Below, piece after piece: positions 19,921 to 39,517 of a stretch of 64,000 bases of DNA (within the stretch, counting starts at the first letter, position 1; the number at the start of each line of letters is the position of its first letter). Source of the stretch: an uncultured bacterium. GTDB lineage: Bacteria > Zhuqueibacterota > QNDG01 > DTFT01. The stretch is from contig CAVTNR010000012.1 of assembly GCA_963736115.1 (NCBI GenBank), forward strand, positions 92,147-156,146, read 5' to 3'. The notes below the pieces were generated by a model. The model worked only from the letters and a program-made list of their open reading frames with translations. It did no database searches and was not told where the DNA came from. The position numbers and the translations under genes are program-made.

Positions 19921-19948
19921 GGTGATTTCGATTTAAATTAATTTTTAT

Positions 19949-20786: not shown

Positions 20787-20805
20787 ATTATCCCTCCATT
20801 CATTG

Positions 20806-20913: not shown

Positions 20914-20944
20914 AAAAATCAATGTGTTTATTTGTATTGTTACT

Positions 20945-21405: not shown

Positions 21406-21627
21406 ATTATCCTCTCATTTGAATTCTATAATAATATACAGCTATTATTTTGAATTTTCAATATTTAATAGCCGAACCTATTATTATACGGCCAATTCCC
21501 CAACAAACCACATTTCTTGATACAGGTATTTCTTGGCCTCTGGAGGAAGAAAAAACTGAAATGGCTGATACAAGGCCTTTAATGTTTCTCTATGCATACA
21601 TTTTCCTGAAAGAGGCTATATCCAGTA

Positions 21628-22375: not shown

Positions 22376-22407
22376 AAAAAAGCCCGTCCCTTTTCAGGAA
22401 CGGGCAG
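22376..22407 (-). terminator. rho-independent terminator for the TIG-lipoprotein operon
   Basis: minus-strand gcccgttcc-tgaaaag-ggacgggc followed by TTTTTT. Confidence 0.6.
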
Positions 22408-22446: not shown

Positions 22447-23640
22447 TTACCATCTCCCGTAATACGGCGCGCCGGGCTCGCCCATGTCGATTCTGTGGAC
22501 GTTTCCGGCCCCGTTGATGAGCATCATGGCATACAGATAATTCCCGGTTCCCCAGACGGTCTTTTCGATCCCGGTTGTCAGAATGCCTTTGTAAAAGGCC
22601 TCCTGGGTTCCATCCGGGTTCAGGACAAAGACCGGGTTCACGTTGTCCGTGGAGATGAAAATCTGGCCGTCCACGGAAAAGGCCATGTCCTTGAATGCGG
22701 CCGTGTTGTACGGCGCGATGGCGTTGGCCTTGTCGAGCACCAGCTCGCGTTCGCCCAGGGTGCCGATCGCGTCCATGATCGGGTGCCGCCAGATCGCGGT
22801 CTGGGTTTTGGTTTCAACCCAGACATAGACGAATCCGTTGAAAACGCGGACGTCCTTGACATCATCGCTGGCGTACAACCCGATGGCCGCATTGGAGCCG
22901 TCCGGCTGGACGACGAAGAGATCGGCCGACTTGCCGGACATGTACAGAATGCCGTTCGAATCAAAGTCGCCCACCGAGATTTTCTTCTTCATGGTCAGCC
23001 ATTTGGCTTCGGTCCCATCCGCGGGGTTCCACTTCGCGACCGCCGTGCTGTTCGCGAACACCACGATGGTGTTGTCCGGCGCCAATACCGCGTCCGTCAG
23101 AACCTTGGTCACGGTCCCGGCCGCCGTCTTTTCTCCGGACGGCGTGACCCGGACCACGCTCAAATCGGCGAAAAAGGCATAGAGGTTCTCTTGGCTGTCC
23201 AGCGCGATCGCCTTGATTACCGTGCCCTCGAGGAACTGGCCGTACTCGGCTTTCACCGGGTCGGTGGTGAATAGCAACGGGGCCACAGCCATGGACAAGG
23301 CGTCATACGAAACGACCTTAATCGATACCGTTCCGGTCACGGACGGCCGCCGGACCGTCAGGCTGGTCGGCGACGCGGCGATCAGGTCGGCCTCGCTGGA
23401 GCCGAAATAAACCTTGTTCCGGTCTATCGTCGCCCCGAAGTTCCGGCCCTGCAGGACGATCGTGTTCACGCCCGCGGTCGCGCGGTCCGGAACCACGGCC
23501 GTGACGGCCGGAGCCGCGGGAATCGTGACTGAATCGTCGTATCTTGGCTCGGCCACGTTGTATTCGCATCCCGCCGCGGCGAGCAGAAGGACCGCGCAGG
23601 CCGATGCCGGCAGGATCCAGCCGTATTGAAAGCGTTTCAT
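22447..23640 (-). CDS. IPT/TIG domain plus beta-propeller lipoprotein (copy 1)
   Basis: lipoprotein signal LLLAAAGCEY; IPT/TIG-like segment then repeated propeller blades. Confidence 0.6.
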   Translation of the reverse strand: MKRFQYGWILPASACAVLLLAAAGCEYNVAEPRYDDSVTIPAAPAVTAVVPDRATAGVNTIVLQGRNFGATIDRNKVYFGSSEADLIAASPTSLTVRRPSVTGTVSIKVVSYDALSMAVAPLLFTTDPVKAEYGQFLEGTVIKAIALDSQENLYAFFADLSVVRVTPSGEKTAAGTVTKVLTDAVLAPDNTIVVFANSTAVAKWNPADGTEAKWLTMKKKISVGDFDSNGILYMSGKSADLFVVQPDGSNAAIGLYASDDVKDVRVFNGFVYVWVETKTQTAIWRHPIMDAIGTLGERELVLDKANAIAPYNTAAFKDMAFSVDGQIFISTDNVNPVFVLNPDGTQEAFYKGILTTGIEKTVWGTGNYLYAMMLINGAGNVHRIDMGEPGAPYYGRW

Positions 23641-23655
23641 CTCATTCTCCTTGCC

Positions 23656-24672
23656 TTAGAGGGAAAAGCGCGCCGTCATGCGCTGGACCTTGTCAAACAC
23701 CCCGAACGGCGTCATCGCGTAGTCGAACGACGCCCCGTAGCGCCGCACGCCCAGGCCGAACGTGAATCCGTCCTCGACGTTGTTCGACACGTAACCGCCG
23801 CGCACCAGAAGCGTCTTCAGAAGACCGTATTCCACCCCCACCTTCAACTGCTCCGGGTGGTCCCGGTGATGGCTCGCGTCCACGCTCACCAGAAGGCTCT
23901 GGTCCAGAGGCAGGTCCTCCACCAGGTCCAGAACGTCCATCGAGATCCCCAGGTTGAACACCAGCGGAAGCTGGAATCCCTCCTCCACGTACTCGATCTC
24001 CGTCGAAAAGTTCCGAACCGACATGCCGAACACCAGGCTCTTGAAGCCCGTCTTGAACTGCGTCCCGAAGTCAAACGCCATCGGCGTCAGGCTGTTTTTC
24101 ACCGTCACCGCCGTCGTATCCAGCGCCGCAGAAACCCGGGGCACCACGCTCTCGCCCAGGTCCTGGTGAACCCAGCGGACCTGGCCGCCCACGCTGAAAC
24201 GGTCCGTCAGACGCTTCGCGTATCCCACGCCCGCCGCCCACGCGCTCAGCTGGAACTTCCCCGTGTCACGGAATCCGTCCGGAGCGGTCTTGTCCACCAC
24301 CGTCCCGTAAAAATCCCCGTAGTCCACGTTCTGGAAGCTCACGCCCAGCACCCCCCACTCCCCCTTCGCCGGGCTCAGCGTCAACGCCACCGCGTTGTGC
24401 TTGATGTCCGCGATCCACGTGTTCTGGCTCGCGCTCACGTCCACGAACACGCCCTGGTTCGCCATGCCCGCGGGGTTGAAGAACAATGACGAAGACCCCG
24501 CCTCCAGGCTCGTCAGCGCCTCGGCCATAGCCGCGCCGCGCGCGTCCGACACCACGCTCAAAAACTGAAATCCCGTCTGCGCCAGCTTCTTGTTCCCCGC
24601 CTCCGCTCCGGACCCGAAACCAAGCACGCCCAGGCAGAGAACGCAGATTCCGATTTGATTGCTCTTGTTCAT
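23656..24672 (-). CDS. PorV/PorQ family T9SS-associated outer-membrane beta-barrel protein (copy 1)
   Basis: N-terminal FQFLSVVSDARGAAMAEAL...FFNPAGMA resembles PorV signature PFLLISPDARSGGMGD...WNPA; alternating beta-strand pattern; C-terminal F. Confidence 0.6.
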   Translation of the reverse strand: MNKSNQIGICVLCLGVLGFGSGAEAGNKKLAQTGFQFLSVVSDARGAAMAEALTSLEAGSSSLFFNPAGMANQGVFVDVSASQNTWIADIKHNAVALTLSPAKGEWGVLGVSFQNVDYGDFYGTVVDKTAPDGFRDTGKFQLSAWAAGVGYAKRLTDRFSVGGQVRWVHQDLGESVVPRVSAALDTTAVTVKNSLTPMAFDFGTQFKTGFKSLVFGMSVRNFSTEIEYVEEGFQLPLVFNLGISMDVLDLVEDLPLDQSLLVSVDASHHRDHPEQLKVGVEYGLLKTLLVRGGYVSNNVEDGFTFGLGVRRYGASFDYAMTPFGVFDKVQRMTARFSL

Positions 24673-24688
24673 CTCTCGTCTCCTTGCC

Positions 24689-26842
24689 TTAGCGTATGAC
24701 CACGAACTTCCGGATCACCGATTCCCCTTTACTGAACCCCGCCCCGTCCTCCGTCACCTCCACGTACAGCAGGTAGATGCCGCTCACGATGATCTGGCGC
24801 GACGATGTCATCGAATCCCACAGCTCGTCGCCCGCGCCGTTCGTGTGCTCTTTTGACCAGACCAGGTCGCCCCGCTCCGTGTACACCCGCACCTTGCACC
24901 GCGGCGGCAGGCCGTAGAACGCGATGCGGTCGTACTGCGACTCGTCCCCGAACTGGAACATCCGCGACCGCAGGTCGTAGGGGTTCGGCACCACGCGGAC
25001 CTGCGAGAGGCTCGTGCCCGCGGGTTTCAGCAGGTTGGCGGGCCGGCTCGTCAGGGTCCAGAACAGGCCGCTCAGCAGAGTGCGGTTCTCCTGCGTGCCG
25101 TCGTCCTTCGATTGAATCGCGTAGTAGTAGTCGAATCCGCGCGTGGCGGTCGTGTCGTTCCATTCGTTCACCGCGTCGGCCGCGCCGCACTCGAACACTG
25201 TCTCGTACCGCGAATCAACGCCGAGCACCGTGCCCACGGCCCGGCTGATCACGTAACCGCCGAAATGCGGGTCAGACTCGGCGTTGTCGGCCCAGGTGAG
25301 CTGGATACGGTCGCCGCCCGAACGGACCGTGAACCACTTCGGCGGCGGCGGCGGCTGGGGCAGAGACCAGCCGGATTCATAGTTCCTCACCGCGTTCCGG
25401 TACATGGCCAGCACGGAGTCCACGCCCGTGAACACCCACGCCTTTTTGTACGCGTTGTGGTCCGCCGTCTCGGAACCATCGGGCATCACGAGGCTGGGCG
25501 AGGCCGTGTTGTTGCGCCACTGCAGCCAGTTCCAACCCACTTCGCGGTTCTTCTCGCGCCCGATGCCGTTCACGCCCTCGGCGAACACGATGCGGACGCT
25601 GTCGCCTGGCGCCAATGTATAGGGCCCAAAGCCCTGGCCCTGGCTGGTGCCGCCTCCGCCCTGGCGACGGGCGTCGGTCAGGGTCATGGCGTAGTTGTTG
25701 CCGATCAGTTCGTCATGCGCCTGGGACGCATGGCCCTCGCTCATAACGCCGTAGCGGATGCCCATATAACTTTCATCATACTGGCTGACATTGGCGCTCA
25801 TGCCCACGATGTCGCCGTCCGAGGCGATGTACCAGGTGGTCTTCGGCTGGGTCGCATCGTCGTCTTGATTGGACGGCGACTTGTCCGCGTGCAAGGTGAC
25901 GGAGCCCGCGAACTTGGCCGAACCCATGAGCCCGTCCTCGTTCTCGTTCGGGCATCCCCAGTCCTCATTGTAACTGACATTCTGCCGGTCGTCCTCGGGC
26001 CCGTAATAGGAGTAATAGCCGCGCATGCCGAAGGTCGGCGAGGACGGATTGGTGAAGGACGCGGCCGCGGGATCCCAGTTGAAGGCATGGTTCAGCGTGC
26101 CTTCTCCCCAGACCGTGTTGAACGCGCCCCAGCCCAGGCCGAACCCGGGGCAGGCTTCACCCGCGAAGGCGTAGCGGACCGTGAAATACACCCAGAGGTC
26201 CTGCAGCGTCTGCGGATAGACCGTGCCCTCGCGGTCGATGATGCCCGTGTTCTTGAATACATAATCGTGGACATAGTAATCGTCCTGGTCGGGACTGGTG
26301 AAGGCCATCACCTTCTTGGTGACGGACACGCCGATCGACGTGTTGAACCGGACAAGCACCATGCGGTCGCAGGGCAGGTTCTCGTCCAGGCTGTCGAGTA
26401 CGTCGTAGGTATCCAGCACCGTGGCCAGGTTGTCGTCCACCGACACCACCGGGTGATAGTCCTTTCCGATCAGCTTGATCTCCTTCTCGAAGATCATGTT
26501 GACCCGCTCTTCGGGATTGCGGGGGCCGGATCCGATCACCTTGACGCTGAGCGTGCGGCCCAGACGGGACTCATGAAAGTTCTTCGCCCCGATCCAGAGT
26601 CCTTTCTGGCGCACCGTGTTCTGCTCGATGCCGTACTGGGCGGGCCAGGAGAAATGGTTCGTGTTGCCGACCTGGGATTCACTCTCGTACTCCGAGCCCA
26701 CCTCGTTGACGAAAGACTGAAGCTGCCCGACGCGGAGCCACCGGACATCCTGGGAGAAACCGGCGCCGGCGAAGACTGTCAGGGCCAGCGCCGCCGTCCC
26801 GATCCAGAGGCCACGGCCGAACTTTGTTTGTTGCGATTTCAT
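24689..26842 (-). CDS. secreted surface protein: novel N-terminal domain + poly-Pro linker + FN3-like + T9SS-type C-terminal domain (copy 1)
   Basis: start chosen at MKSQQTKF (26842) with signal peptide, 20 nt after TBDR stop; C-terminal VPNPYD...SGIYLLYVEVT matches Por tail pattern. Confidence 0.6.
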   Translation of the reverse strand: MKSQQTKFGRGLWIGTAALALTVFAGAGFSQDVRWLRVGQLQSFVNEVGSEYESESQVGNTNHFSWPAQYGIEQNTVRQKGLWIGAKNFHESRLGRTLSVKVIGSGPRNPEERVNMIFEKEIKLIGKDYHPVVSVDDNLATVLDTYDVLDSLDENLPCDRMVLVRFNTSIGVSVTKKVMAFTSPDQDDYYVHDYVFKNTGIIDREGTVYPQTLQDLWVYFTVRYAFAGEACPGFGLGWGAFNTVWGEGTLNHAFNWDPAAASFTNPSSPTFGMRGYYSYYGPEDDRQNVSYNEDWGCPNENEDGLMGSAKFAGSVTLHADKSPSNQDDDATQPKTTWYIASDGDIVGMSANVSQYDESYMGIRYGVMSEGHASQAHDELIGNNYAMTLTDARRQGGGGTSQGQGFGPYTLAPGDSVRIVFAEGVNGIGREKNREVGWNWLQWRNNTASPSLVMPDGSETADHNAYKKAWVFTGVDSVLAMYRNAVRNYESGWSLPQPPPPPKWFTVRSGGDRIQLTWADNAESDPHFGGYVISRAVGTVLGVDSRYETVFECGAADAVNEWNDTTATRGFDYYYAIQSKDDGTQENRTLLSGLFWTLTSRPANLLKPAGTSLSQVRVVPNPYDLRSRMFQFGDESQYDRIAFYGLPPRCKVRVYTERGDLVWSKEHTNGAGDELWDSMTSSRQIIVSGIYLLYVEVTEDGAGFSKGESVIRKFVVIR

Positions 26843-26862
26843 GTGACACCTCTGTGTGTTGG

Positions 26863-29800
26863 TCAACGGGTTAGGTCGAAGGACAGCCGGGCGCCGTAGT
26901 AGAAGTGCCTGGGATTCAGGAACCAGAAGGTGGATGCGTTCGGCATGTCGATATAGGCCTTGTCCTTCAGCACGCGGTCGATCCGTTTTTTGGCCACCTC
27001 GGACCAAGCTCCTCCGGCGTATTCCCAGTACAGGCCCGTCGAACCCTCGAAATAGATGGCCCGCGGCTTGCCGGACGAGGCCGGGTCGATCGTGCCCTGG
27101 TATTCCATCGGCTGGAACTCGACGCCGGGCTTCCGATAGTCCCCGACCCGGTCGTTCCCCGGAATGTTGTTGTAGGCCTTGTTCTTCGGCAGGTGAAGCG
27201 ACAGCATGTAGTCGCGGTCTCCGGTGTCCCACAGCCGCTTGGTGTTCAGCACATTGTCCACATCCATCATGATCTGCACGCTGGCCCGGCCCAGGCGGAG
27301 CGTCTTGGAGAGCCGCAGGGTGGTGTTGAAATAATCCAGGGTCCGTACGTTATATGAAATGGACGGCACGTTCCGCGGGTTCCAGGTCACCCAGTTGCTG
27401 GCCTGCCAGTTCAGGAGCATGTTGAGCATCCATCCGCCCAGGGGCGCGTGGCCGAACACGGCCGGCCCCATGTCTCCGGGAGTGTACAGGCTGAGGTCGG
27501 CCCGTGCGTACGGCCGCGGCATCGGCCGGTCCTGGTACATGTTGATCGTGGCTTCGTCCCACTTTTTCTGCTCGGACGGATCCTGATACTGCCGGGCGCT
27601 GTTGAAGTGGCCGGACGTGCTGACCTGGTAGGTGTAGTTCGCGAACCCGGACCACCAGCGGCCCGTACTTTTGCGCAGGGTCAGCTCGAAGCCGCGGATA
27701 TCCTCGTACCGGTTGCTCGTGGTGAGCCCGTACGAATAGCCGGCGACCGAGTAGTAAGTGGTGTAGTCCTGCTGATCCGAGATGTCGCGGTAGAATGCGG
27801 TGACCTGCAGGAGAAAGCTCCTCGGGAGCAGGTGGTCGTAGCCCAGTTCGTAGGAGATGGTTTTGGCCAGGATCATGCTGGGATCGCCGATGCTGGTCAG
27901 ATAGCGTTCCGCGTTGCGCTGAACCCGGAACAGAGTCTCATACTGCGGCATCTGCTTGAAATGGCCGTAGTTGAAAAACAGCTTGGAGTTTTCGGTGATG
28001 GGATGCGAGATGCCGAGCCTGGGGCTGAGCTGCCACTGCGGCTTTGATTCCTTCATGGCGTACTCGGCGGCCGGCTTGTACTTGGACGAATAGAAGGCGT
28101 TGTCGTAGTGTTCGATGTTCCACCATTCAGTGCGGGAATCGCTGTAGTCGAGCCGCAGGCCCGCGTTCATCGTGAATCCCTTGGTTTCGAGCTTGTCCTG
28201 CAGATAGAGGCCGGCCCGGACCGGGAACACGCGCATCTGAACGCGGTTGGCGTAGGTCTTGCCGGCGGTGGCGGACGCGATGGTGCCGTAGTCGAAATCC
28301 AGATCGTTGTACACGAGTTCCGCGCCGGCCTTGACCAGGTTGTTGTAGTCGACCTGGCTGGTGTAGTCGGCCTTCAGCGTGGTGGAGCCGACTTTGGAGA
28401 AGTCGCGGGCTTTGGCGACGTGGGAACCGCCGATGATGATCACGCCGTTCACCTCGGACGGCCAGTATCCCAGGGGGTTGGAATCCTCGTAGAATCCGGG
28501 CACGACCTCGGTAAGGGCCGATGTGTCGCGCAGGGCCCTCGGCCGCACGTTGTAGTCGCGCCGGAACTGCTCCAGAGTGATTTCATAGAACGTCTTCGAG
28601 CTGACCGTGTGGGTGAGCTTGGCGGCCAATGACCGGTGCCCGATGTCGGCCAGGCAGAAGTTGTAGTCGGAGAACATGTTCACCAGGTCGAAGGTGCTCG
28701 CGACGTTCAGCGCGACGCCCGCGATCTCGTTCGGGTACCGCGGGTAGTAATAGGTGCCCGTGCCGTCCCAGTTGTGCCGTATGGTGAACTGCTTGCCGGC
28801 GAGCGCGGACAGACGCAGTTTCATGGTCTTGGTGATATCGGCATTCAGCTGGAGGGTCCAGTCATAGTCTTTGTAATCGGGACGGGACAGCGGCCAGACC
28901 AGCATGTCGCGATGCTGACGGAACGAACCAAAGAACCGCAGATCGCCCAGTGCCTTTCCGATCACCGGAACCGGCCCGCCGAAGCCCGCGTCAATGTCGT
29001 AATCCGCCTGGTCGTTGATCTGCCGCTTGCGGATCTCGTACTCGAACGCGCGACGGGCGGCCAGGGGCGTCAGGTCGTTGTTCGGATTATTGTCCGTGCA
29101 CAGGGACTGTGAGATGGCGTTCCATCCGACGAATTCCATGTACTGCTTGCGTGTGTACTCGTCCCACGCGCCGCTGGCCGTGCCCGTCCAGCACACGGCG
29201 TCGTCGTAAAACGGACGCATGACATAGGAGTCCGGGTCATGCACGTCCACGATGCCCGTGCCCCGCCAGTACTTCGGCGCGGCCGGGCTGAGCCGCGTTT
29301 GGACGCTTCCGAAATAGCCCTGGCGGCTGCCCTCCTGGGTGACCACGTTGACGATGCCCGACTGCACCTGGCCGTATTCGGCGTTGAATCCGCCGCGCTC
29401 AACCGAAATCTCCTTGATGGCGGACAGTGCCAGCTTGGTGATGGGCTGGTTGTTGCGGGGATCACGCAGGGTGACGCCATCCATCATGAACAGGGCCGCA
29501 TCGGCCATGCCGCCGCGGATGCTCAGGCCCTGCATGCCGGCCTGCATGCCCAGCACGCCCTCGATGTTGGCCACGGGCAGGTCCTGAATTTCCTTGTCCG
29601 TCACGGAAACGACGCTGGTGGCCACGTCCGTTTTCACGAGCTCGCGCTTGGCGGCCACGACCACGGTTTCGCCCTGGAGGACTTCGTCGGCCAACCGCAC
29701 GTCCACATGCGCGGTCTGGTCGATGAGCACGCGTATGGACTGCACCGTCACCCGGCCGTACCCGAGCATGGAGAGCTGGACCGAATGGGTGCCGGGCGGC

Positions 29801-30012
29801 ACTTCGAGAATCGTATACGTGCCGTCCAAGTCCGTGACGCCGCCGAGCGCGGTGCCCGCGACCATCACATTGACGCCCGGCAGGGGCGTTCCTGTTTTCT
29901 GGTCCGTGACCTGTCCCCTTATCTTTCCGGTCGTGCCCGCCCAAAGCGGGGTGCCGAGAATCAGGACCAGAAGCAGCGTCTGGCCGAGGGCCCGCGTGAA
30001 AATGCTTTTCAT
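26863..30012 (-). CDS. SusC/RagA-like TonB-dependent receptor (copy 1)
   Basis: ATG 30012 with GGAGGATGG RBS; signal peptide; carboxypeptidase-regulatory-like domain; TonB plug; long beta-barrel. Confidence 0.8.
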   Translation of the reverse strand: MKSIFTRALGQTLLLVLILGTPLWAGTTGKIRGQVTDQKTGTPLPGVNVMVAGTALGGVTDLDGTYTILEVPPGTHSVQLSMLGYGRVTVQSIRVLIDQTAHVDVRLADEVLQGETVVVAAKRELVKTDVATSVVSVTDKEIQDLPVANIEGVLGMQAGMQGLSIRGGMADAALFMMDGVTLRDPRNNQPITKLALSAIKEISVERGGFNAEYGQVQSGIVNVVTQEGSRQGYFGSVQTRLSPAAPKYWRGTGIVDVHDPDSYVMRPFYDDAVCWTGTASGAWDEYTRKQYMEFVGWNAISQSLCTDNNPNNDLTPLAARRAFEYEIRKRQINDQADYDIDAGFGGPVPVIGKALGDLRFFGSFRQHRDMLVWPLSRPDYKDYDWTLQLNADITKTMKLRLSALAGKQFTIRHNWDGTGTYYYPRYPNEIAGVALNVASTFDLVNMFSDYNFCLADIGHRSLAAKLTHTVSSKTFYEITLEQFRRDYNVRPRALRDTSALTEVVPGFYEDSNPLGYWPSEVNGVIIIGGSHVAKARDFSKVGSTTLKADYTSQVDYNNLVKAGAELVYNDLDFDYGTIASATAGKTYANRVQMRVFPVRAGLYLQDKLETKGFTMNAGLRLDYSDSRTEWWNIEHYDNAFYSSKYKPAAEYAMKESKPQWQLSPRLGISHPITENSKLFFNYGHFKQMPQYETLFRVQRNAERYLTSIGDPSMILAKTISYELGYDHLLPRSFLLQVTAFYRDISDQQDYTTYYSVAGYSYGLTTSNRYEDIRGFELTLRKSTGRWWSGFANYTYQVSTSGHFNSARQYQDPSEQKKWDEATINMYQDRPMPRPYARADLSLYTPGDMGPAVFGHAPLGGWMLNMLLNWQASNWVTWNPRNVPSISYNVRTLDYFNTTLRLSKTLRLGRASVQIMMDVDNVLNTKRLWDTGDRDYMLSLHLPKNKAYNNIPGNDRVGDYRKPGVEFQPMEYQGTIDPASSGKPRAIYFEGSTGLYWEYAGGAWSEVAKKRIDRVLKDKAYIDMPNASTFWFLNPRHFYYGARLSFDLTR

Positions 30013-30307
30013 ACCATCCTCCAAGAAATGAGATGGGACTGCCGTGAAAATGCCGGGAATCTGATGAAATACGTTAATACGGAATGTGCCGTTTACTTAA
30101 TCGTTTTAGCCAAACCATACAAAAACCTTGCTCAATCGAGCCTATTTCCTTAACAACTATTTATAATAATATTATGAAGTTAGGAGTCGACCGGAAACGT
30201 TTCCAATAATATACAAAAAATCCCCTTTTCCGCAAGCACTTTTTAAACTGAACCGCCCGGGGTTGCGAAGCCTCGGGCGATCAAAATCGGAACATATACA
30301 GGGGGGT

Positions 30308-30820: not shown

Positions 30821-30927
30821 TGAACTGCCTCCGGATCTGAAATGGAGCGGAGATCCTCGCCCAGGGCATTGAGGCTCCGGGGGATCATGTGATCAGCCTG
30901 ACCCCGAAATCGGTTCGGGGACCGCTT

Positions 30928-32148
30928 TTATCTGAACATCCCGACCGGCGGCGGCGCCGGGCCGAAATCCGGTCCCATATCGATCCGGATCAGGTCTCCC
31001 TTGGTCCCGACGAGTTGGAGCATGTACGCATAGCGGCTGTTTCCCCGGACCAGCCGCTCCGCGCTCCCCTTGATGATGCCCTTGTACCAGGTGTCCAGTG
31101 TCCCGTCCGCCTTCATCAGCAGGATGGGGTCGGCCGCGTCCGTGGCCACGTACATGTCGCCCGAGGCCGAGAACATCACGTCCTTGAACGCAGCGGCTGA
31201 AAATACGCCTGAAGCGGCTCGGTCCAGCACCGTTTCCCTCGGCCCGAGCGTTCCGGCCGCGTCGAGTATCGCGTGGCGGTACACGGCCGCCTTCGGCTCA
31301 ACGGTGGCGTGCTCCGCCACCACGTACACATAATTTCCATTCACCCGTATCTTCTTCACATCGTGAGTGGCATAAACTCCGAGCGCCGCTGAAAACGTCC
31401 CGTCCGGATACGACACGTACAGGTCGGTGTTCTTGGCGGCCATATAAATGTTGCCGTTCGCGTCCGCGTCCCCGACCGTGAAGCGTTTCGGCGCCTTCGC
31501 GACCCATTCCGTTTCCACGCCGTCCACCGGGTTCACCTTCGAGATCTTCGCATTGTTGCTCAGCAGAACCAGGCTTTGGTCCGCGGCCGGAATCACGTCC
31601 GTCACGCCCCGGAGCGTCGATTCCATGAAAACACTCTGCGTGCCGTCCGAAGCCACCTTGAACGCCTTCATCAGGCCGGTTCGGAAAATGTAGATGTTCT
31701 CCGCCGCGTCTACCAGGATCGCGTTGTTGGCCGCGCCGTCGATGAAGCCGCCGTAGGGCTCCGCCACGACGTCGACCGGGTATCCTTCGAAGCTTCCGAC
31801 CTCCAGCGCGCCCAGGGTCACCACTTTCAGATTCAGCGTCCCGGATACCGCCGGCCGCCGGATCAGAAGGGAGGTGGCGGTCGCGGAAATGATCTCCGTC
31901 TTCGCGCCGTTGAAATACACCCGGTTGCTGTCCGGCACGGGCGAAAAACGGTCGCCGCGTATCGTGACGGTATTCACGCCTGCCGTTGCCCGGGCGGGTT
32001 CCAGACCGGTCACCGACGGCCCCAGTTTCGCGGCATGGTCCTGGTACCACATGGGCACGGGCGAGTCGTATTCGCATCCCGCCGCGGCGAGCAGAAGGAC
32101 CGCGCAGGCCGATGCCGGCAGGATCCAGCCGTATTGAAAGCGTTTCAT
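30928..32148 (-). CDS. IPT/TIG domain plus beta-propeller lipoprotein (copy 2)
   Basis: first 27 aa identical to copy 1, remainder paralogous. Confidence 0.6.
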   Translation of the reverse strand: MKRFQYGWILPASACAVLLLAAAGCEYDSPVPMWYQDHAAKLGPSVTGLEPARATAGVNTVTIRGDRFSPVPDSNRVYFNGAKTEIISATATSLLIRRPAVSGTLNLKVVTLGALEVGSFEGYPVDVVAEPYGGFIDGAANNAILVDAAENIYIFRTGLMKAFKVASDGTQSVFMESTLRGVTDVIPAADQSLVLLSNNAKISKVNPVDGVETEWVAKAPKRFTVGDADANGNIYMAAKNTDLYVSYPDGTFSAALGVYATHDVKKIRVNGNYVYVVAEHATVEPKAAVYRHAILDAAGTLGPRETVLDRAASGVFSAAAFKDVMFSASGDMYVATDAADPILLMKADGTLDTWYKGIIKGSAERLVRGNSRYAYMLQLVGTKGDLIRIDMGPDFGPAPPPVGMFR

Positions 32149-32163
32149 CTCATTCTCCTTGCC

Positions 32164-33180
32164 TTAGAGGGAAAAGCGCGCCGTCATGCGCTGGACCTTG
32201 TCAAACACCCCGAACGGCGTCATCGCGTAGTCGAACGACGCCCCGTAGCGCCGCACGCCCAGGCCGAACGTGAATCCGTCCTCGACGTTGTTCGACACGT
32301 AACCGCCGCGCACCAGAAGCGTCTTCAGAAGACCGTATTCCACCCCCACCTTCAACTGCTCCGGGTGGTCCCGGTGATGGCTCGCGTCCACGCTCACCAG
32401 AAGGCTCTGGTCCAGAGGCAGGTCCTCCACCAGGTCCAGAACGTCCATCGAGATCCCCAGGTTGAACACCAGCGGAAGCTGGAATCCCTCCTCCACGTAC
32501 TCGATCTCCGTCGAAAAGTTCCGAACCGACATGCCGAACACCAGGCTCTTGAAGCCCGTCTTGAACTGCGTCCCGAAGTCAAACGCCATCGGCGTCAGGC
32601 TGTTTTTCACCGTCACCGCCGTCGTATCCAGCGCCGCAGAAACCCGGGGCACCACGCTCTCGCCCAGGTCCTGGTGAACCCAGCGGACCTGGCCGCCCAC
32701 GCTGAAACGGTCCGTCAGACGCTTCGCGTATCCCACGCCCGCCGCCCACGCGCTCAGCTGGAACTTCCCCGTGTCACGGAATCCGTCCGGAGCGGTCTTG
32801 TCCACCACCGTCCCGTAAAAATCCCCGTAGTCCACGTTCTGGAAGCTCACGCCCAGCACCCCCCACTCCCCCTTCGCCGGGCTCAGCGTCAACGCCACCG
32901 CGTTGTGCTTGATGTCCGCGATCCACGTGTTCTGGCTCGCGCTCACGTCCACGAACACGCCCTGGTTCGCCATGCCCGCGGGGTTGAAGAACAATGACGA
33001 AGACCCCGCCTCCAGGCTCGTCAGCGCCTCGGCCATAGCCGCGCCGCGCGCGTCCGACACCACGCTCAAAAACTGAAATCCCGTCTGCGCCAGCTTCTTG
33101 TTCCCCGCCTCCGCTCCGGACCCGAAACCAAGCACGCCCAGGCAGAGAACGCAGATTCCGATTTGATTGCTCTTGTTCAT
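32164..33180 (-). CDS. PorV/PorQ family protein (copy 2, 100% identical to copy 1)
   Basis: identical 338-aa ORF. Confidence 0.6.
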   Translation of the reverse strand: MNKSNQIGICVLCLGVLGFGSGAEAGNKKLAQTGFQFLSVVSDARGAAMAEALTSLEAGSSSLFFNPAGMANQGVFVDVSASQNTWIADIKHNAVALTLSPAKGEWGVLGVSFQNVDYGDFYGTVVDKTAPDGFRDTGKFQLSAWAAGVGYAKRLTDRFSVGGQVRWVHQDLGESVVPRVSAALDTTAVTVKNSLTPMAFDFGTQFKTGFKSLVFGMSVRNFSTEIEYVEEGFQLPLVFNLGISMDVLDLVEDLPLDQSLLVSVDASHHRDHPEQLKVGVEYGLLKTLLVRGGYVSNNVEDGFTFGLGVRRYGASFDYAMTPFGVFDKVQRMTARFSL

Positions 33181-33196
33181 CTCTCGTCTCCTTGCC

Positions 33197-35383
33197 TTAG
33201 CGTATGACCACGAACTTCCGGATCACCGATTCCCCTTTACTGAACCCCGCCCCGTCCTCCGTCACCTCCACGTACAGCAGGTAGATGCCGCTCACGATGA
33301 TCTGGCGCGACGATGTCATCGAATCCCACAGCTCGTCGCCCGCGCCGTTCGTGTGCTCTTTTGACCAGACCAGGTCGCCCCGCTCCGTGTACACCCGCAC
33401 CTTGCACCGCGGCGGCAGGCCGTAGAACGCGATGCGGTCGTACTGCGACTCGTCCCCGAACTGGAACATCCGCGACCGCAGGTCGTAGGGGTTCGGCACC
33501 ACGCGCACGCCTTCGAGGCTGGTGCCCGCCGGTCTTCGGAGGTTCGCGGGCACATTCGTGAGGGTCCAGAACAGGCCGCTCAGCAGCGGCTGGCCGGGCT
33601 GCACGTCGTTCTGGGTTCCGTCGTCCTTTGACTGAACGGCGTAGAAGTAGTCGAATCCGCGGACCGCGGTCGTATCATCCCAGGTATGAACCGCGTCGCC
33701 GGCTCCGCACTCGAACACCTTCTCGTACACGGCCTTCGGATCCATCACGTTTCCCTGGGACCGGATCACGACGTATCCGCCGAAATGGGGATCGGCCGCG
33801 GCATTGCCGTTCCACGACAGCCGGATGCGGTCGCCGCCCGACTCCACCTTGAACCACGACGGCGGGGGCGGCGGCTGGGGAATCGCGTACCCGGACAGGA
33901 AGGCCGTCCGGGCGCGCTGGAAGGTCTGCAGGAGGGAATCGCGGCCCGTCTGCACCCAGGCGCGCTTGTACGCGGTGTGGTCGGTAGTCGACGCGCCGTC
34001 GGGCATGACGAGCGCCGGCGCCCCCGTTCCCTTGTAGACCTGCAGCCAGTTGCCGCCGACCTCGCGGTTCTTCTCGCGGCTCAGACCCGCGACCCCCTGG
34101 ACCAGAACGACGCGGATGCTGTCCCCGTCGTTCAGGTCGTACGGACCGAAGCCCTGGGTGTTGGCGTACCCGCCGACGCCGCTGCCCCATTCGTTGGCCG
34201 GCGTTCCGGATTCTTCGATGTCCTGCGCCTGCGTCTTCTCGGCGTGCCCCTTGATCATGAAGGCATAGCGCTTGGCCATGAACGTCTCGTCGTAAATGGA
34301 CTGGGAAGTCGTGCGCTGGGAGATGTCCTCGTCGCTGTTGACATAATGAGTGGTCCGGGGCTGGGTCGGGTCGTCCGCCGGATTGCCGGGCGCCGTGTCG
34401 ACGTGCAGGGCCGCCTGGCCGACGTACCGGGCCGCGGCCATGATGCCGGTGCCCTGTTCGTCCGGACAGCCCCAGTCATCCTCGAGGGACACGGGCCTCT
34501 CCGAATGCGGGCCGTACCAGGCGATATTGGCGCGCATGCGGTACGCCAGGGAATTCGGATCATTGAACGCATCGGCTTCGGGGTTCGTGCCGATCACGTC
34601 ATTCACCAGGTTGCGTCCGTAGCTCGAGTTCCCCACGCCCCAGGTCCGGTCGGTCGAATTCTCCGGAACGGATTCGCCGGCCAGGGCGTAGCGGTTGAGC
34701 AGCATGAACCAGAATCCCTTCACCGGCTGTTTGACCACCGTTCCGGCGCCGTCGATGACGCCGGTGTTCTTCAGGGTGTAGTCGTATATGTAGTAATTGT
34801 CGTTGTACTGCTGGGTGTAGACGTAGACCTTCTTCGTGACCGTCACGCCGACCGGCGTGTGGTTCTTCACGACCAGCATCCGGTCCGCATTCAGGTCCGG
34901 GTCGATCTCGTCCAGCACGTCGTACAGGTTGTTGTGGTTGGCGAGCTGGTCGTCGACGGACACGACGGGGTGGTCGAAGCGGCCCACCAGCCGGAAGTCG
35001 ACGGCATTTGGGATCGGCCGGCCCGCGGGATATTCGTTCGGCTTCATCCCGATGTTCGTGACGGCGTAGGCGAACACCTTGTCGACGGGCGCCTCGTAGT
35101 AGTCTGCACATCCCAGCCACATGCCGCGCGCGCGCAGGGTCGCCTGCACCAGGCCGTACTGCGCGGGCCAGGAGAAACGGTTGTTGTACTGGTTGTCGCC
35201 GCCGGTCTCCGGCTCGCATCCGTGCTCGGAGAAATAGCCGTGCAGCGCGTTGACGCGCAGCCATTTCATCTGCTGGGACCAGCCGATATACTGGCCGCCC
35301 TGTCCGAGCAGGGGGCGGAACGGCAGGAGCAGGGCCGCCGCGGTCAGGGCGGGGATTATCCGGTGGATGTTCATGTTCTTCAT
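33197..35383 (-). CDS. secreted surface protein with T9SS-type C-terminal domain (copy 2)
   Basis: signal peptide MKNMNIHRIIPALTAAALLL; conserved NRFSWPAQYG block; last 105 aa identical to copy 1. Confidence 0.6.
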   Translation of the reverse strand: MKNMNIHRIIPALTAAALLLPFRPLLGQGGQYIGWSQQMKWLRVNALHGYFSEHGCEPETGGDNQYNNRFSWPAQYGLVQATLRARGMWLGCADYYEAPVDKVFAYAVTNIGMKPNEYPAGRPIPNAVDFRLVGRFDHPVVSVDDQLANHNNLYDVLDEIDPDLNADRMLVVKNHTPVGVTVTKKVYVYTQQYNDNYYIYDYTLKNTGVIDGAGTVVKQPVKGFWFMLLNRYALAGESVPENSTDRTWGVGNSSYGRNLVNDVIGTNPEADAFNDPNSLAYRMRANIAWYGPHSERPVSLEDDWGCPDEQGTGIMAAARYVGQAALHVDTAPGNPADDPTQPRTTHYVNSDEDISQRTTSQSIYDETFMAKRYAFMIKGHAEKTQAQDIEESGTPANEWGSGVGGYANTQGFGPYDLNDGDSIRVVLVQGVAGLSREKNREVGGNWLQVYKGTGAPALVMPDGASTTDHTAYKRAWVQTGRDSLLQTFQRARTAFLSGYAIPQPPPPPSWFKVESGGDRIRLSWNGNAAADPHFGGYVVIRSQGNVMDPKAVYEKVFECGAGDAVHTWDDTTAVRGFDYFYAVQSKDDGTQNDVQPGQPLLSGLFWTLTNVPANLRRPAGTSLEGVRVVPNPYDLRSRMFQFGDESQYDRIAFYGLPPRCKVRVYTERGDLVWSKEHTNGAGDELWDSMTSSRQIIVSGIYLLYVEVTEDGAGFSKGESVIRKFVVIR

Positions 35384-35408
35384 GATCGGCCTCACGGTCG
35401 TTTGGGGA

Positions 35409-38400
35409 TTATCGCAGGTCCAGGGTCATCCGCACGCCGAAAAAGACCTGTCGCGGATTCAGGAACGTGAACGACGTCACGGCCGGCATGTCGATGTAGG
35501 CCTTGTCGTCCAGTATCCGGTTCAGGCGGCTCTGGCCGACATCGGCCCATGCGCCACCGGCGTACTCGACGGTCCGCCCGGTGCTCCGGTCGTAATAGAT
35601 GACCCCGGGATCTCCCGTGTCGGAGGCGTAGTTGATCGTTCCGCGTCCGAACATCGGCTGGTACGCCACGCCCCGTCTCCGGTATTCCCCGATACGGTCG
35701 TTGCCCGGAATGTTGTCATAGGCCTTGCTCTTCGGCAGGTGCAGGCTGTTGTAGTACAGGTCTCGGTCGCTCGCCTTGCCCCCGAAGTTCGCGAGCGACA
35801 TGCGCTTCAGGTTGAACAGGTTCTCGACGTCCGCGAAGGCTTCCATGCGCACGCTCCCGAACCGGACGCTCTTGCTCAGCCGGAGAACCGACGTATAGAC
35901 GGCCTTCCTCTGCACGTTGTAGGAGAGGGACCGGATCTGCTTGGGGTTCCAGGTCTCCCACGCCCCCGCCTGCCATCCGAGCAGGACATTGGCCAGAAAG
36001 CCGCTCATCGGGTGGCCGCCCAGCAGGCGCGGGCCGAATCCGGACGGCGAGACCAGCGAGACATTGACCCGCGCGTAGGGACGGGGCGTCGGCCTGTCCT
36101 GGTAGAGGTTGACCGTGGACTCGTCGTACTCCCGCTGCAGGGACGGATCCTCGTAGATCTGTTCGCGGCCGAAGTGCCCGGATGTGGTCACCTGGTATGT
36201 GTAATTGCCGAAGAAGGTCCACCACCGCCCCCGGTTCTTCCGGAGCGTGAGCTCAAAGCCGCGGATGTCCTCGTAGCTGTTGCTCGTGGACCGCTGGTAG
36301 GAAACGCCGCCGACCGACAGGTACTGGGTGGCGTTCTGCTGGTCGCTGATGTCGTGGTAGAAGGCGGCGACCTGGGCCAGCAGCGCGTTGTCCAGAAGCG
36401 CGTAATCGAATCCGAGTTCGTACGAGATCGTCCTGGCGAGAATCAGGTCCGGGTCGCCGAACAGGGTCAGCATGTGGTCGTTGGAACGGCCGATCCGGAA
36501 AAGTGATTCATAGGACGGCATCTGCTTGAAGTGGCCGTAATTGAAGAACAGTTTGGAATTCTCCGTGATGGGATGCGAGATCCCGAGCCTGGGGCTGAGC
36601 TGCCACTGGGCCCGCGTCTTCTTCATGGGAAATTCCATGTCCTCGCTGTACAGCCGCGTGAAGAAGGTCGCGTTGTACGGGTCCACGTTCCACCACTCGG
36701 CGTTCGAGTTGCTGACATCGAGCCGGAGTCCCGCGTTCATGATGAAGCCCTTGGTTTCGAGCTTGTCCTGCACGTAGGCGGCGGCGCGGTAGGGAAACTG
36801 ATTCATCCGGACGCGCACGTCGTATGAATCGGCGAAATAATTGGAAACGGTGCCGTAGTCGAACCGCAGGTCATTGTACGTGAATTCGACGCCCGCCTTG
36901 ACCAGGTTGGCGAAATTGACCTGGCTGGTCATGTCGGCCTTCAGCGTGGTGGAGGCGGTGCGGGTGTTGTCGCGCTGTTTGCAGGTGAACCCCCCGAACA
37001 CCATGCCCGATATGCCGAGCTGGTCGTCCGGGTTGTACCCGAACGGCGCCTCGTCCACGAAATAGCCCGGTACGATCTCGGTTGTCCTCGACGTGTCGCG
37101 CAGTGTGCCTTTCCGGGCCCAGTAGTTGCGGGCGAAACGCTCCAGGGAAACCTCGTAGAACGTTTTCGGATTCAGCGCGTGCGTGAACTTGGCGGACAGG
37201 TTCTGATGGCTGATGTCGGTCGGGCTGAAAATGCCCGTCCCGAACAGGGAGGAGTGGCTGTTGCCGATCACCGAGGCGATCGTGGCGGCGTCGCGGACGT
37301 AAAAGGGCGCCCAGTTCTGCATCATGGTGTACTGCTTGCCGATCAGCCCGGTGACCACCAGGTGCATGGCGGGAGACAGGTCCGTCGTGAGCTTCATGGA
37401 CCAGTCGTAGTCGACATAATCGGGCCGGCTCAGGGGCACCACGAGCATGCTGCGGTTCCGGCGGTAGGAGGTGAAGAAGCGGAGATTGCCCAGCGGCCTG
37501 CCGATGAGCGGAATCAGCCCCCCGAAACCCGCGTCGATGTTGTAATCCTGCTGGTCGTACACCGGCTTCTTGCGGGTCTCCCACATGTACACGCGCTGGG
37601 CGCCGAACGGCGACAGGTCGTTGGTCGGGTCGGAATCGCTCATCAGCCGTTCCGAGATGGCGTTCCATCCCTCGAAATCGGGGTACTGGAGGCGGGTGTA
37701 CTTGTCCCATCCCGTCCACCGGCCGTCCCCGTTCATGTCGGTGTAGGTTTCGCCGGCCTGCCAGTTCGCGTCGCCGTTCCCGTCCGTGAAAGGCTCGCCC
37801 GCGGTTCCCATCCAGCAGACCTCGTCGTCGAAATACGGCTTGAGGAAGAAGCCGTTCCGGTCGAACGGCGAGATTCCGAAGTTCTTCATGCCCGGCGGCG
37901 AGATCTTGAATTCCACGCTTCCCTGGTATCCCGATTTGCCGCCCTCCCGAGTGACCACGTTCACGATGCCCGAGCGGACCTGGCCGTACTCGGCGTTGAA
38001 TCCGCCGCGCTCGATCGAGATCTCCTTGATGGCGGACAGCGGGATGCTGGACACGGGCGAGTTGTTCCGCGGGTCGCGCAGGGTGATGCCGTCCATGAGA
38101 ATGAGGGCCTCATCCGCGCCGGCGCCGCGGATCTGGAATCCGCCCTGGATGCCGGCCTGGAGGGACACCACGTTCTCGACGTTCGAGACCGGCAGTTCCC
38201 GCACTTCCTCAGCGGACACGGCCGTGACGCTGGTCGCGACGTCCGGCCGGACGGCCTCGCGCTTCGCGGCCACGGTGACGGCCTCTCCCTTGAGCACCTC
38301 CTGCTTCATCTTCAGATCCACGCGCGCGGTCTGGTCGATCAGGACCCGGACGTCCTCCACGGAAGTCCGGGCGTATCCCATGAGCGAGATGACCACGGTG

Positions 38401-38627
38401 ACCGTTCCCGGCGGCACTTCCAGAATCGTGTAATTGCCGTCCAGGTCCGTCGCCGCTCCGAGAGCCAGACCCTGAACCATCACATTGGCCCCGGGCAGGG
38501 GAGCTCCGGTTTTTCCGTCGACAATGGTTCCTGCGATTTTTCCCCGGGTGCCGGAGACGGCCGGAACCGACAGGACGGCCGCGCAGAACAGGATCCATCC
38601 CAAGATCCGGTGTTCAGCAGTTTTCAT
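35409..38627 (-). CDS. SusC/RagA-like TonB-dependent receptor (copy 2)
   Basis: ATG 38627 with GGAGG RBS; same domain order as copy 1, roughly 55-60% identical by eye. Confidence 0.8.
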   Translation of the reverse strand: MKTAEHRILGWILFCAAVLSVPAVSGTRGKIAGTIVDGKTGAPLPGANVMVQGLALGAATDLDGNYTILEVPPGTVTVVISLMGYARTSVEDVRVLIDQTARVDLKMKQEVLKGEAVTVAAKREAVRPDVATSVTAVSAEEVRELPVSNVENVVSLQAGIQGGFQIRGAGADEALILMDGITLRDPRNNSPVSSIPLSAIKEISIERGGFNAEYGQVRSGIVNVVTREGGKSGYQGSVEFKISPPGMKNFGISPFDRNGFFLKPYFDDEVCWMGTAGEPFTDGNGDANWQAGETYTDMNGDGRWTGWDKYTRLQYPDFEGWNAISERLMSDSDPTNDLSPFGAQRVYMWETRKKPVYDQQDYNIDAGFGGLIPLIGRPLGNLRFFTSYRRNRSMLVVPLSRPDYVDYDWSMKLTTDLSPAMHLVVTGLIGKQYTMMQNWAPFYVRDAATIASVIGNSHSSLFGTGIFSPTDISHQNLSAKFTHALNPKTFYEVSLERFARNYWARKGTLRDTSRTTEIVPGYFVDEAPFGYNPDDQLGISGMVFGGFTCKQRDNTRTASTTLKADMTSQVNFANLVKAGVEFTYNDLRFDYGTVSNYFADSYDVRVRMNQFPYRAAAYVQDKLETKGFIMNAGLRLDVSNSNAEWWNVDPYNATFFTRLYSEDMEFPMKKTRAQWQLSPRLGISHPITENSKLFFNYGHFKQMPSYESLFRIGRSNDHMLTLFGDPDLILARTISYELGFDYALLDNALLAQVAAFYHDISDQQNATQYLSVGGVSYQRSTSNSYEDIRGFELTLRKNRGRWWTFFGNYTYQVTTSGHFGREQIYEDPSLQREYDESTVNLYQDRPTPRPYARVNVSLVSPSGFGPRLLGGHPMSGFLANVLLGWQAGAWETWNPKQIRSLSYNVQRKAVYTSVLRLSKSVRFGSVRMEAFADVENLFNLKRMSLANFGGKASDRDLYYNSLHLPKSKAYDNIPGNDRIGEYRRRGVAYQPMFGRGTINYASDTGDPGVIYYDRSTGRTVEYAGGAWADVGQSRLNRILDDKAYIDMPAVTSFTFLNPRQVFFGVRMTLDLR

Positions 38628-39517
38628 GTCAACCTCCAGACAAAATGCGTCCACGGTATTGCTTGTTCATTGAAAAGACGAATGGTTGTATCCGTCTGTG
38701 ACTGACTCTCTCGCGTAAGTCGATCTACCGACAGAATACGCTCAAGGCGCTCCTCTGTCATGATTATTTCCGATAATGAATGAAATAACTGCGCTGGACA
38801 GGATACGAAAGATAATTTGTACGGAATTTTTGAAAATCAGGAACCGAAATACGGTCTTCGGGAATGTCGCGACCCTCAGCAATCCAACAGTTTGTTTCCA
38901 TTCGCATGGGTTCTCCGGATGCCGGGTGCAGATGAATGGAACTCGTCCTATTACAGTAAACGTTAACGATAACGCCGAAAACCGGTTCTTCAGGCGTCCG
39001 GATCAGAGATGAATATGTGTTTCGCTATTTATCGAAAGGAATGGTTCGAATAAGATACAACTTTTTATCCCGAATGCAAGTTGTTTTCATTTTTTACTAA
39101 ACCGCTCCATCAGCCGGATCCTGAAAACGCGAAAATGACCGGAAATCGGCCATGCCCGGACATCCCATTCATGCTTCTACGGCGCGTTCATTCCGCACCT
39201 GTCTTATCCGTTGGTCCGGCAGCAGGGCTGTTGCATTTCCCAGCTAAGAGTATTCACCCCCCAAATGACAAACCTTTCAATCGGGCGGCCAGAAGCCTGG
39301 TCATTCCGGTTCCAGTTTTTCTGAATGATCGGAGATTGGGCTTCTGGCCGCTCCGACGGGTCGGCTTCTCGGCCTCTTTCGGGGTCCATCATCCAAGTTT
39401 CTTGCGATACTCCGCTGCTGACGGCAGGGTCCTTCAATATTTTATAGTGGCATTTTTTTGAAATTTGTTTTAACTTGAAATAGCGAAGAATCCCTCTTCC
39501 CTCAAAGGAGCCGCCCG

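Follow-up and report, generated by a model that had tools for sequence, protein, structure and literature searches.

A candidate SusD-independent glycan import cassette with a proposed PorQ-PorZ-like surface anchor in an uncultured FCB-group bacterium

The subject of this report is a pair of paralogous gene cassettes found in a 64-kb window, i.e., the whole stretch of 64,000 nucleotides that was analysed (contig CAVTNR010000012.1, positions 92,147 to 156,146), from an uncultured bacterium of the Fibrobacteres-Chlorobi-Bacteroidetes (FCB) group whose nearest named relatives belong to candidate division KSB1/Zhuqueibacterota. Between positions 22447 and 38654 of the window, nine co-directional genes on the minus strand form two four-gene units plus one small lipoprotein gene, and all nine are located where an earlier note, made from the sequence alone, had placed them. 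Both units show the same order, that is, a TonB-dependent receptor (TBDR), a protein of approximately 720 residues (here called X), an outer-membrane barrel of the PorV/PorQ family and a lipoprotein with an IPT/TIG domain; within a unit the genes are separated by 13-16 nt. We consider it probable that each unit is a glycan capture and import cassette of the type encoded in polysaccharide utilization loci (PULs), independent of SusD and provided with an anchor that resembles the PorQ-PorZ pair, a reading in which we infer the binding, the anchoring and the substrate. A role in glycan import, taken alone, is very likely. The cassette itself is real, widespread and built from known parts, and it is apparently undescribed. 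The nine genes are as follows.

35409-38654, minus strand: unit A TBDR, 1081 aa, likely start ATG at 38627; CarboxypepD_reg-like N-terminal extension, plug and large barrel
33197-35395, minus strand: unit A protein X, 732 aa; Sec signal peptide without lipobox, predicted beta-supersandwich head (approx. residues 40-505), FN3 region (approx. 506-625) and PorZ-type C-terminal domain (CTD, residues 631-732, i.e., 33200-33505)
32164-33180, minus strand: unit A outer-membrane barrel of the PorV/PorQ family (NF033709), 338 aa, cassette-specific
30928-32148, minus strand: unit A IPT/TIG and beta-propeller lipoprotein (PF01833, lipobox), 406 aa
30308-30820, minus strand: small lipoprotein between the units, 170 aa, lipobox LSC
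26863-30024, minus strand: unit B TBDR, 1053 aa, likely start ATG at 30012; domains as in unit A
24689-26842, minus strand: unit B protein X, 717 aa; signal-peptide ATG at 26842, reading frame open up to 27232
23656-24672, minus strand: unit B PorV/PorQ-family barrel, 338 aa, identical in sequence to the unit A barrel
22447-23640, minus strand: unit B IPT/TIG and beta-propeller lipoprotein (PF01833, 30.6 bits), 397 aa

A strong terminator-like hairpin lies just 3' of unit B:
22382-22405, minus strand: hairpin with a 10-bp stem followed by a T run

Conservation of this order was assessed by tblastn of the window proteins on 82 related loci (84 X genes), obtained from metagenome-assembled genomes (MAGs) named KSB1/Zhuqueibacter, Calditrichia, Ignavibacteria/Melioribacteraceae and Neomarinimicrobiota, plus others; only loci with a contig reaching far enough were counted. 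A TBDR gene is directly upstream of X in 70/72 loci, the barrel gene is directly downstream of X in 50/52, and the TIG gene comes next after the barrel in 42/45. Because of these frequencies the four-gene order is not a chance adjacency, and judging from sequence it is a conserved operon-like unit in several FCB lineages; the triad of TBDR, X and barrel that had been noticed in this window thus recurs in the FCB-group genomes covered by the context search, the gene order being present in hundreds of genomes. Tandem duplicate cassettes are also present in L001, L015 and L020. The first search for X returned 159 close homologues, all annotated as hypothetical proteins, those with a named source being from MAGs of KSB1, Ignavibacteriales and 'Bacteroidota'. 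Among GTDB species representatives, a scan gave more than 552 X relatives, the best 78 loci often with several per genome, and a HMMER scan of 1.84 billion cluster representatives (clusters at 50% identity) gave 275 X-family members at E<=1e-30. A search started from a Melioribacteraceae homologue returned MAG or metagenome proteins only.

Several variations on the conserved order were observed. A subset of cassettes carries an extra lipoprotein gene of approx. 244 codons between X and the barrel, in L066 (12110-12844) and in L044, L060, L062, L064, L070, L074, L076 and L080. In L019 (10007-16329), L021 and L022 the TIG gene precedes the TBDR gene. The 170-aa lipoprotein gene located between the two units of the window is, on the sequence comparisons, outside the conserved cassette; its product had no family match in Pfam or NCBIfam and no tblastn counterpart in the 82 related loci. 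The GC content at third codon positions of this gene is 0.66, as compared with 0.82-0.89 in its neighbours. The start of the window lies inside a gene for the large subunit of carbamoyl-phosphate synthase (4-1017, plus strand), and the same gene is found immediately upstream of the tandem cassettes in L001 (2955-6206); therefore, some synteny outlasts a rearrangement.

The first gene of each unit had been described as a SusC/RagA-like TBDR, a description that holds for its architecture and fails on family membership. Both receptors match the Pfam families for CarboxypepD_reg (PF13715/PF13620), Plug (PF07715) and the TonB_dep_Rec barrel (PF00593) above cutoff, and they are 56% identical to each other in amino acid sequence; however, on the SusC/RagA model TIGR04056 the unit A receptor reaches 81.5 bits and that of unit B 66.6 bits, below the family threshold of 368 bits, and the match is restricted to model positions 2-183 of 981, that is, to approximately the first 180 residues of the receptor. 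These profile matches indicate that the TBDRs share only the N-terminal extension and the plug with SusC. It had also been claimed that no SusD-like gene follows the receptor, and this was borne out: no SusD-family match was found among the genes of the window or in the annotated loci L001, L003, L004, L083 and L084, and the SusD family is absent from the 25 commonest families of 85 neighbouring open reading frames (ORFs) at 36 loci. The susCD tandem, which defines a PUL (PMC5753385), is absent from the cassette, which contains no adjacent pair of susC-like and susD-like genes.

The place of SusD in the gene order is occupied by protein X. Neither X protein of the window is assigned to a family in Pfam or NCBIfam, and the sole match of a profile of full-length X in the PDB was to an FN3 protein. 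The AlphaFold2 model of X (pLDDT 88.6, pTM 0.86) shows a head domain built as a supersandwich and not as propellers, and from this model the head is of the carbohydrate-binding, non-catalytic type. The heads of units A and B are 43% identical, the FN3 domains 68% and the CTDs 100%. The earlier note had named, as an outcome that would refute it, that X proves to be a divergent SusD-like protein or a member of a known enzyme family; these results show it to be neither. The SusD fold is alpha-helical and TPR-like; X was ruled out as a divergent SusD because it is all-beta. Domain additions are seen within the X family: many homologues of 800-880 aa carry an added CBM_5_12 domain (PF02839), i.e., P0017, P0045, P0051, P0085, P0088 and P0108, as well as others within P0280-P0342; P0098 has a dockerin, and P0238 has an N-terminal propeller of the BNR/sortilin type.

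At its extreme C-terminus X has a compact, seven-stranded Ig-like beta-sandwich (pLDDT 87.5 when modelled alone) that resembles the solved CTDs of type IX secretion system (T9SS) proteins. A Foldseek search with this model gave PorZ as the sole match at E<=0.001. Likewise, the T9SS_PorZ model NF052228 is matched by 36/56 members of the X family, with a best whole-protein E of 2e-8 and no sign of a beta-propeller region; the unit B protein matches the NCBIfam PorZ model over residues 612-696 (E 0.0025). As a full-length PorZ equivalog X does not qualify, the match to NF052228 being 16.3 bits in the CTD region only, against a cutoff of 260. The type B model CHU_C (PF13585) gives 17.4 and 18.7 bits for the window X proteins, below its cutoff of 27, and sub-threshold matches in 26/56 family members. 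The type A sorting models (TIGR04183 and PF18962) do not match either X protein of the window, and hhalign of the X CTD against the four type A CTDs of the window gave a weak alignment (P 0.039, probability 1.3%) with the PNP, GxY and terminal basic motifs in register; the CTD by itself, compared with PDB sequences by phmmer, gave noise only. Thus, the Por-type tail previously assigned to X survives as a T9SS-type CTD, identified by predicted fold and by similarity to the PorZ HMM, and is missed by the type A Por_Secre_tail models.

The length of this domain is also informative. PorZ and PorU are T9SS proteins in which the CTD is not cleaved (PMC11285876, PMC12365241); their CTDs have 96 and 108 residues, whereas cleaved CTDs have 67-88 (PMC11285876). 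PorZ is anchored by PorQ and PorU by PorV (PMC12365241), and in a review it was proposed that cognate PorV-like barrels shield such CTDs from cleavage (PMC10202324). The CTD of X, with 102 residues, is in the range of the uncleaved PorZ and PorU domains and outside that of the cleaved ones.

The third gene of the cassette encodes a barrel that fits this comparison. The window barrel matches the PorV/PorQ family model NF033709 with 173.4 bits over model positions 1-325 of 326, well above the cutoff of 90, and the family is matched by 54/54 cassette barrels; the view that it is PorV/PorQ-like, and not an unrelated FadL/OmpP1 porin, was thereby upheld. It does not reach either equivalog, i.e., PorV (NF033710, 72.0 bits, cutoff 250) or PorQ (NF033711, 66.5 bits, cutoff 220), and since the PorV and PorQ models score equally on the cassette barrels, these appear from sequence to be a separate subfamily equidistant from both. 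There is a weak match to F. johnsoniae PorV (6h3i_F). The PorP/SprF model TIGR03519 did not match the window barrel at E<=0.01 and gave weak matches in 9/54 cassette barrels; an exact-sequence look-up of the window barrel protein matched no record. The possibility that the barrel is the general PorV of the organism was ruled out, as there is one copy per cassette and several per genome, all below the equivalog cutoff.

A further observation links the barrel to the CTD. A block of 1438 nt is repeated without a single difference in the two units:

32068-33505: first copy of the block, 100% identical to 23560-24997
23560-24997: second copy of the block, 100% identical to 32068-33505

Read in the direction of the genes, the block opens with the 102 final codons of X, which encode the CTD, continues through the complete barrel gene and ends after 27 codons of the TIG gene, a stretch that encodes the signal peptide and the lipobox. 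Its borders are exact, at the first codon of the CTD and at TIG codon 27, just past the lipobox, and mismatches are dense right outside both. Beyond the block the units diverge (TBDR 56%, X head 43%, FN3 68% and TIG protein 44% identity). The tandem pair of L001 shows the same mosaic, with identities of 0.89 for the CTD, 0.99 for the barrel and 0.58 for the TBDR; the mosaic is partial in L015 and was not seen in L020 nor in pairs on different contigs. The same border is visible in the assemblies: among X genes cut by a contig end that retain the start of the CTD, 11/14 contigs end 132-209 nt past that start (L005, L006, L007, L009, L013, L014, L025, L032, L036, L048 and L052), and the distances are equal within a genome (136/136, 132/132 and 201/201). 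De Bruijn assemblers behave in this way where a repeat begins; therefore, short-read assemblies break exactly at the cassette loci, which are systematically fragmented by the shared CTD-barrel repeats.

The association between this CTD and the barrel can also be examined in X relatives that have a different tail. In five of them the CTD is of the canonical type A, and a barrel gene is found downstream in 0/5, versus 50/52 for the cassettes (Fisher p 5e-6). Two of these relatives have approx. 700 residues, with the X-type CTD cleanly swapped, and the other three have 1350-1530 residues with added beta-helix repeats. By analogy with the known pairs, we judge it rather probable that the CTD and the barrel together anchor X. 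The earlier note had taken PorV, the shuttle of CTD cargo, as the model for the barrel; PorQ holding the uncleaved CTD of PorZ, i.e., a permanent anchor, appears to be the better analogy.

The shuttle idea nevertheless has to be weighed, together with a related one. The barrel could serve X as a shuttle of its own, receiving it from the T9SS translocon before the CTD is cleaved, or it could be a BamG-like platform or FadL-type channel that packs on the TBDR and serves the TIG lipoprotein or a hydrophobic ligand. PorV is reported to be a shuttle of CTD cargo (PMC5562754), and BamG, a FadL/PorV-like 14-strand barrel, is bound to the back side of BamA, with a surface lipoprotein mounted on it (PMC12578637); moreover, the cassette barrels are equal on the PorV and PorQ models, and the identical block includes the signal peptide of the TIG lipoprotein. 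However, the CTD of X is nearer to the uncleaved domains of PorZ and PorU than to cleaved ones, and of their length; matches of the BamG model to the barrels are marginal (E 0.0047, 2/54 members); and each cassette has a single barrel gene, which goes strictly with the X-type CTD and is missing beside the type A versions. We regard this explanation as rather improbable.

The last gene of the cassette encodes a lipoprotein that was earlier described as an IPT/TIG propeller lipoprotein, and the description stands. The TIG model (PF01833) is matched with 32.3 bits in unit A and 30.6 in unit B (cutoff 20.9), a lipobox is present, and the unit A protein has propeller-like matches in the PDB. The proteins of units A and B are 44% identical; after the lipobox AAAGC they continue with E-Y-D (unit A) or E-Y-N-V-A-E (unit B). 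This conserved C-E-Y-D motif after the lipid-bearing cysteine resembles in sequence the surface-export signal of Bacteroidota, for which a rule for lipoproteins was described (PMC12578637), and an acidic motif like the lipoprotein export signal (LES) was found in 26/37 homologues of the TIG lipoprotein.

The genes that surround the two cassettes concern carbohydrates to a large extent. Divergently oriented from the cassettes are the following genes.

39518-41959, plus strand: glycoside hydrolase (GH) of family GH2, divergent from the cassettes
42195-43496, plus strand: GH10 xylanase with T9SS type A sorting domain
43560-44930, plus strand: second GH10 xylanase with T9SS type A sorting domain, above the TIGR04183 cutoff
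44927-46630, plus strand: arabinofuranosidase-like gene
46696-50067, plus strand: Reg_prop/Y_Y_Y/HisKA/HATPase sensor kinase
50627-53335, plus strand: Reg_prop/Y_Y_Y/HisKA/HATPase sensor kinase

Sensor kinases with Reg_prop and Y_Y_Y domains are the sensor type of Bacteroidota PULs. Downstream of the cassettes there are an AraC regulator, a BD-FAE esterase and a GH30 gene, so that the neighbours in the window form a xylan set (two GH10, GH2, GH30 and the esterase). Carbohydrate-active enzymes (CAZymes) and dedicated sensors or regulators are co-localised with the cassettes, as in PULs, both in the window and at related loci: in L003 the cassette is flanked by a complete hybrid two-component system, GH31 and GH2; the genes that come after the L084 cassette encode GH31, a protein with a CTD and GH13; and in L019 X is followed by xylA (xylose isomerase), xylB (xylulokinase) and an aldose 1-epimerase gene. 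Among the 85 ORFs within 5 kb of cassettes at 36 loci, the most frequent families are Por_Secre_tail (11), GH31 (9), LacI (9), GDSL esterases (5), GH20 (4) and FGGY kinases (3). These neighbours vary and, therefore, different cassettes go with different enzyme sets, as in PULs. Type A cargo of the T9SS is encoded in the same window, since the second GH10 and a C25 peptidase are above the TIGR04183 cutoff and a 119-aa ORF is above that of PF18962:

3275-6184, minus strand: peptidase C25 (gingipain/PorU clan), 969 aa, with type A sorting domain (TIGR04183, 32 bits, cutoff 23)
15086-15445, minus strand: 119-aa ORF consisting almost wholly of Por_Secre_tail (PF18962, 30.7 bits)

The latter may be the remnant of a truncated T9SS cargo gene.

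This context bears on the possibility that the cassette imports something other than a glycan, e.g., peptides, a metal chelate or a cofactor, in which case the CAZyme surroundings would be incidental. The TBDRs are below the SusC model and have weak partial plug matches to siderophore and B12 receptors, and the C25 peptidase is encoded in the window. However, independent lineages repeatedly show CAZyme, LacI, sugar-kinase and xylA genes as neighbours, sensors of the PUL type adjoin the cassettes, the X head is predicted to be of the carbohydrate-binding type, and the window yielded no riboswitch and no other Rfam family. Import of a non-glycan is, on this evidence, very improbable.

From these data a mechanism can be proposed for the cassette as a SusD-independent glycan importer. 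X would cross the inner membrane through the Sec system, as suggested by a signal peptide with no lipobox, and the outer membrane through the type IX system. Its CTD would be kept uncleaved on the barrel of its own cassette, as PorZ is on PorQ and PorU on PorV, and the retained domain would display the predicted carbohydrate-binding head, on its FN3 stalk, at the cell surface beside the TBDR; the TIG-propeller lipoprotein would likewise be surface exposed. Oligosaccharides set free by enzymes that the T9SS secretes (in this window, the GH10 xylanases) would be bound by both proteins and handed to the TBDR for TonB-driven uptake; the two would thus take over the jobs of SusD and of the SusE/F-like binding proteins. 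Periplasmic enzymes and the sensor kinases would complete the system. In such a scheme the CTD-barrel pair would be a constant anchoring module, and the TBDR, the X head and the TIG protein would be the substrate-specific variable modules. In a wider form, which we put forward only tentatively, a retained CTD of the PorZ type and a PorQ-like barrel would be a portable anchoring module, kept uniform within each genome by gene conversion, that mounts X, as a SusD-analogous lid or feeder that binds glycans, on TBDRs in several FCB phyla outside the Bacteroidia (KSB1/Zhuqueibacterota, Calditrichota, Ignavibacteria and Marinimicrobia). The specific role of X as a SusD-like lid or feeder of the receptor, drawn by analogy, seems to us possible, though somewhat doubtful; it is rated lower than the import role since free-standing cargo of type A can carry an X head as well.

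A number of observations weigh against the proposed reading. Among the five X relatives with a type A CTD, no TBDR is found upstream in four, so the head is not an obligate lid of a receptor and the head domain has a function of its own. In a correlation of pairwise identities, in the style of a mirror-tree analysis, all modules correlate, and the value for the CTD-barrel pair (Spearman 0.50) is lower than that for the TBDR and the CTD (0.75). The barrel gene does not follow X in L019 and L022, i.e., in 2/52 loci with enough downstream sequence, and the X proteins of these loci would need a barrel encoded elsewhere; the contig of L021 ends soon after X, so the presence of a barrel is not readable there. 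No core T9SS genes were seen within the 64-kb window, and the C25 peptidase, which reaches 50 bits where the PorU sortase model demands 420, is not clearly PorU. In addition, the head has many polar residues that do not vary among cassettes with different CAZyme sets beside them, and such invariance would suit a catalytic site, or a site for a conserved partner, no less than a binding site. The last point bears on another explanation, according to which X is a surface enzyme, i.e., an unrecognised glycoside hydrolase, lyase or epimerase with a galactose-mutarotase-like fold, held by the same anchor and acting on glycans just outside the TBDR. The predicted non-catalytic type of the supersandwich head favours binding, and we consider the enzyme unlikely.

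The perfect identity over 1438 nt could, in principle, also be an artefact of assembly or polishing, which is the remaining point of this kind; perfect repeats located 8.5 kb apart are a feature that assemblers mishandle. On this explanation the duplication, or the adjacency of the genes, would be due to an artefact or to chance. Nevertheless, the order is kept in 50-70 independent loci, the same tandem mosaic is found in L001 at an X identity of only 63%, the two copies of the repeat have different flanks, and both units are complete; we thus hold this explanation to be extremely improbable.

Returning to the reading of each unit as a SusD-independent import cassette, its parts can be compared with four known systems. 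As in SusC/SusD PULs, a large TBDR with a CarboxypepD_reg-like extension heads the operon, surface accessory genes that include an Ig/TIG lipoprotein follow, and CAZymes and Reg_prop/Y_Y_Y sensors adjoin; in contrast, SusD is missing, the TBDR is below the SusC/RagA threshold, the second gene encodes a non-lipoprotein with a predicted supersandwich head and a T9SS-type CTD, and the third encodes a PorV/PorQ-family barrel. In the PorQ-PorZ and PorV-PorU pairs of P. gingivalis, a protein with a long, uncleaved CTD is held on the outer membrane by a barrel of the PorV/PorQ family (PMC12365241, PMC10202324, PMC10947112). In structure, the CTD of X comes nearest to the PorZ and PorU domains, and the cassette barrel belongs to the same NCBIfam family; however, X lacks the two beta-propellers of PorZ, the barrel reaches neither equivalog cutoff (PorV or PorQ), and the cassette pair is multi-copy and located in nutrient-uptake operons, outside the secretion machine.

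The third comparison is with type B CTD cargo, such as SprB-SprF and PG1035-PorP, in which the cargo gene is followed by its own barrel gene and the barrel anchors the cargo non-covalently at the surface (PMC9143113). The X gene is likewise directly followed by its own barrel gene, and part of the X family has weak CHU_C matches. Unlike in those systems, the cassette barrel is of the PorV/PorQ family and not PorP/SprF, the CHU_C matches are below cutoff, and known type B systems serve gliding adhesins and not TonB-dependent import. Finally, in BamG-BamH a FadL/PorV-like 14-strand barrel packs on another barrel as a platform for surface-exposed proteins (PMC12578637), so that there is a precedent for a larger barrel having a PorV-like one as its structural partner; but the BamG model barely matches the cassette barrels, BamH is a lipoprotein and not a CTD protein, and the function is another one. 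None of the known PorQ-PorZ, PorV-PorU and PorP/SprF pairs is tied to a TonB-dependent importer. The suggestion that this gene order is not a described system agrees with full-text searches of open-access papers, which turned up no description of a cassette of TBDR, CTD protein, PorV-like barrel and TIG lipoprotein; the genome papers on Caldithrix and Zhuqueibacterota are silent on it.

If the wider form of the proposed reading is correct, the cassette would represent a second, independent solution to the capture of glycans at the cell surface, and anchoring of the type IX kind would for the first time be linked to TonB-dependent import. If the proposed reading itself holds, nutrient import would join secretion and gliding among the uses of T9SS-type CTDs and PorV-like barrels, a large family annotated as "hypothetical proteins" (at least 275 clusters at 50% identity) would acquire a function, and the cassettes would offer a natural system in which to study the retention of a CTD versus its cleavage, with constant and variable modules split by sharp recombination borders. 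SusC/SusD pairs are the defining feature used to find PULs, so cassettes of this kind escape PUL prediction; yet several copies of them are present in abundant, uncultured lineages of sediments, hot springs and marine habitats that are thought to degrade polymers.

Two other features of the window are of minor interest. Directly downstream of the unit B terminator there is an island of low GC content (17000-22000, GC 0.35-0.38 versus approx. 0.6 in the flanks), with no tRNA nearby or anywhere else in the window, that was probably acquired horizontally. It contains an ORF with a B12-binding domain (19339-19920) and a radical-SAM fragment (18500-19249) that look like a single split B12-radical-SAM gene, besides other ORFs that have no family. 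On the opposite side of the cassettes, a gene on the minus strand (56737-59133) encodes a 798-aa protein in which a patatin-like phospholipase is fused to an Omp85-family barrel.

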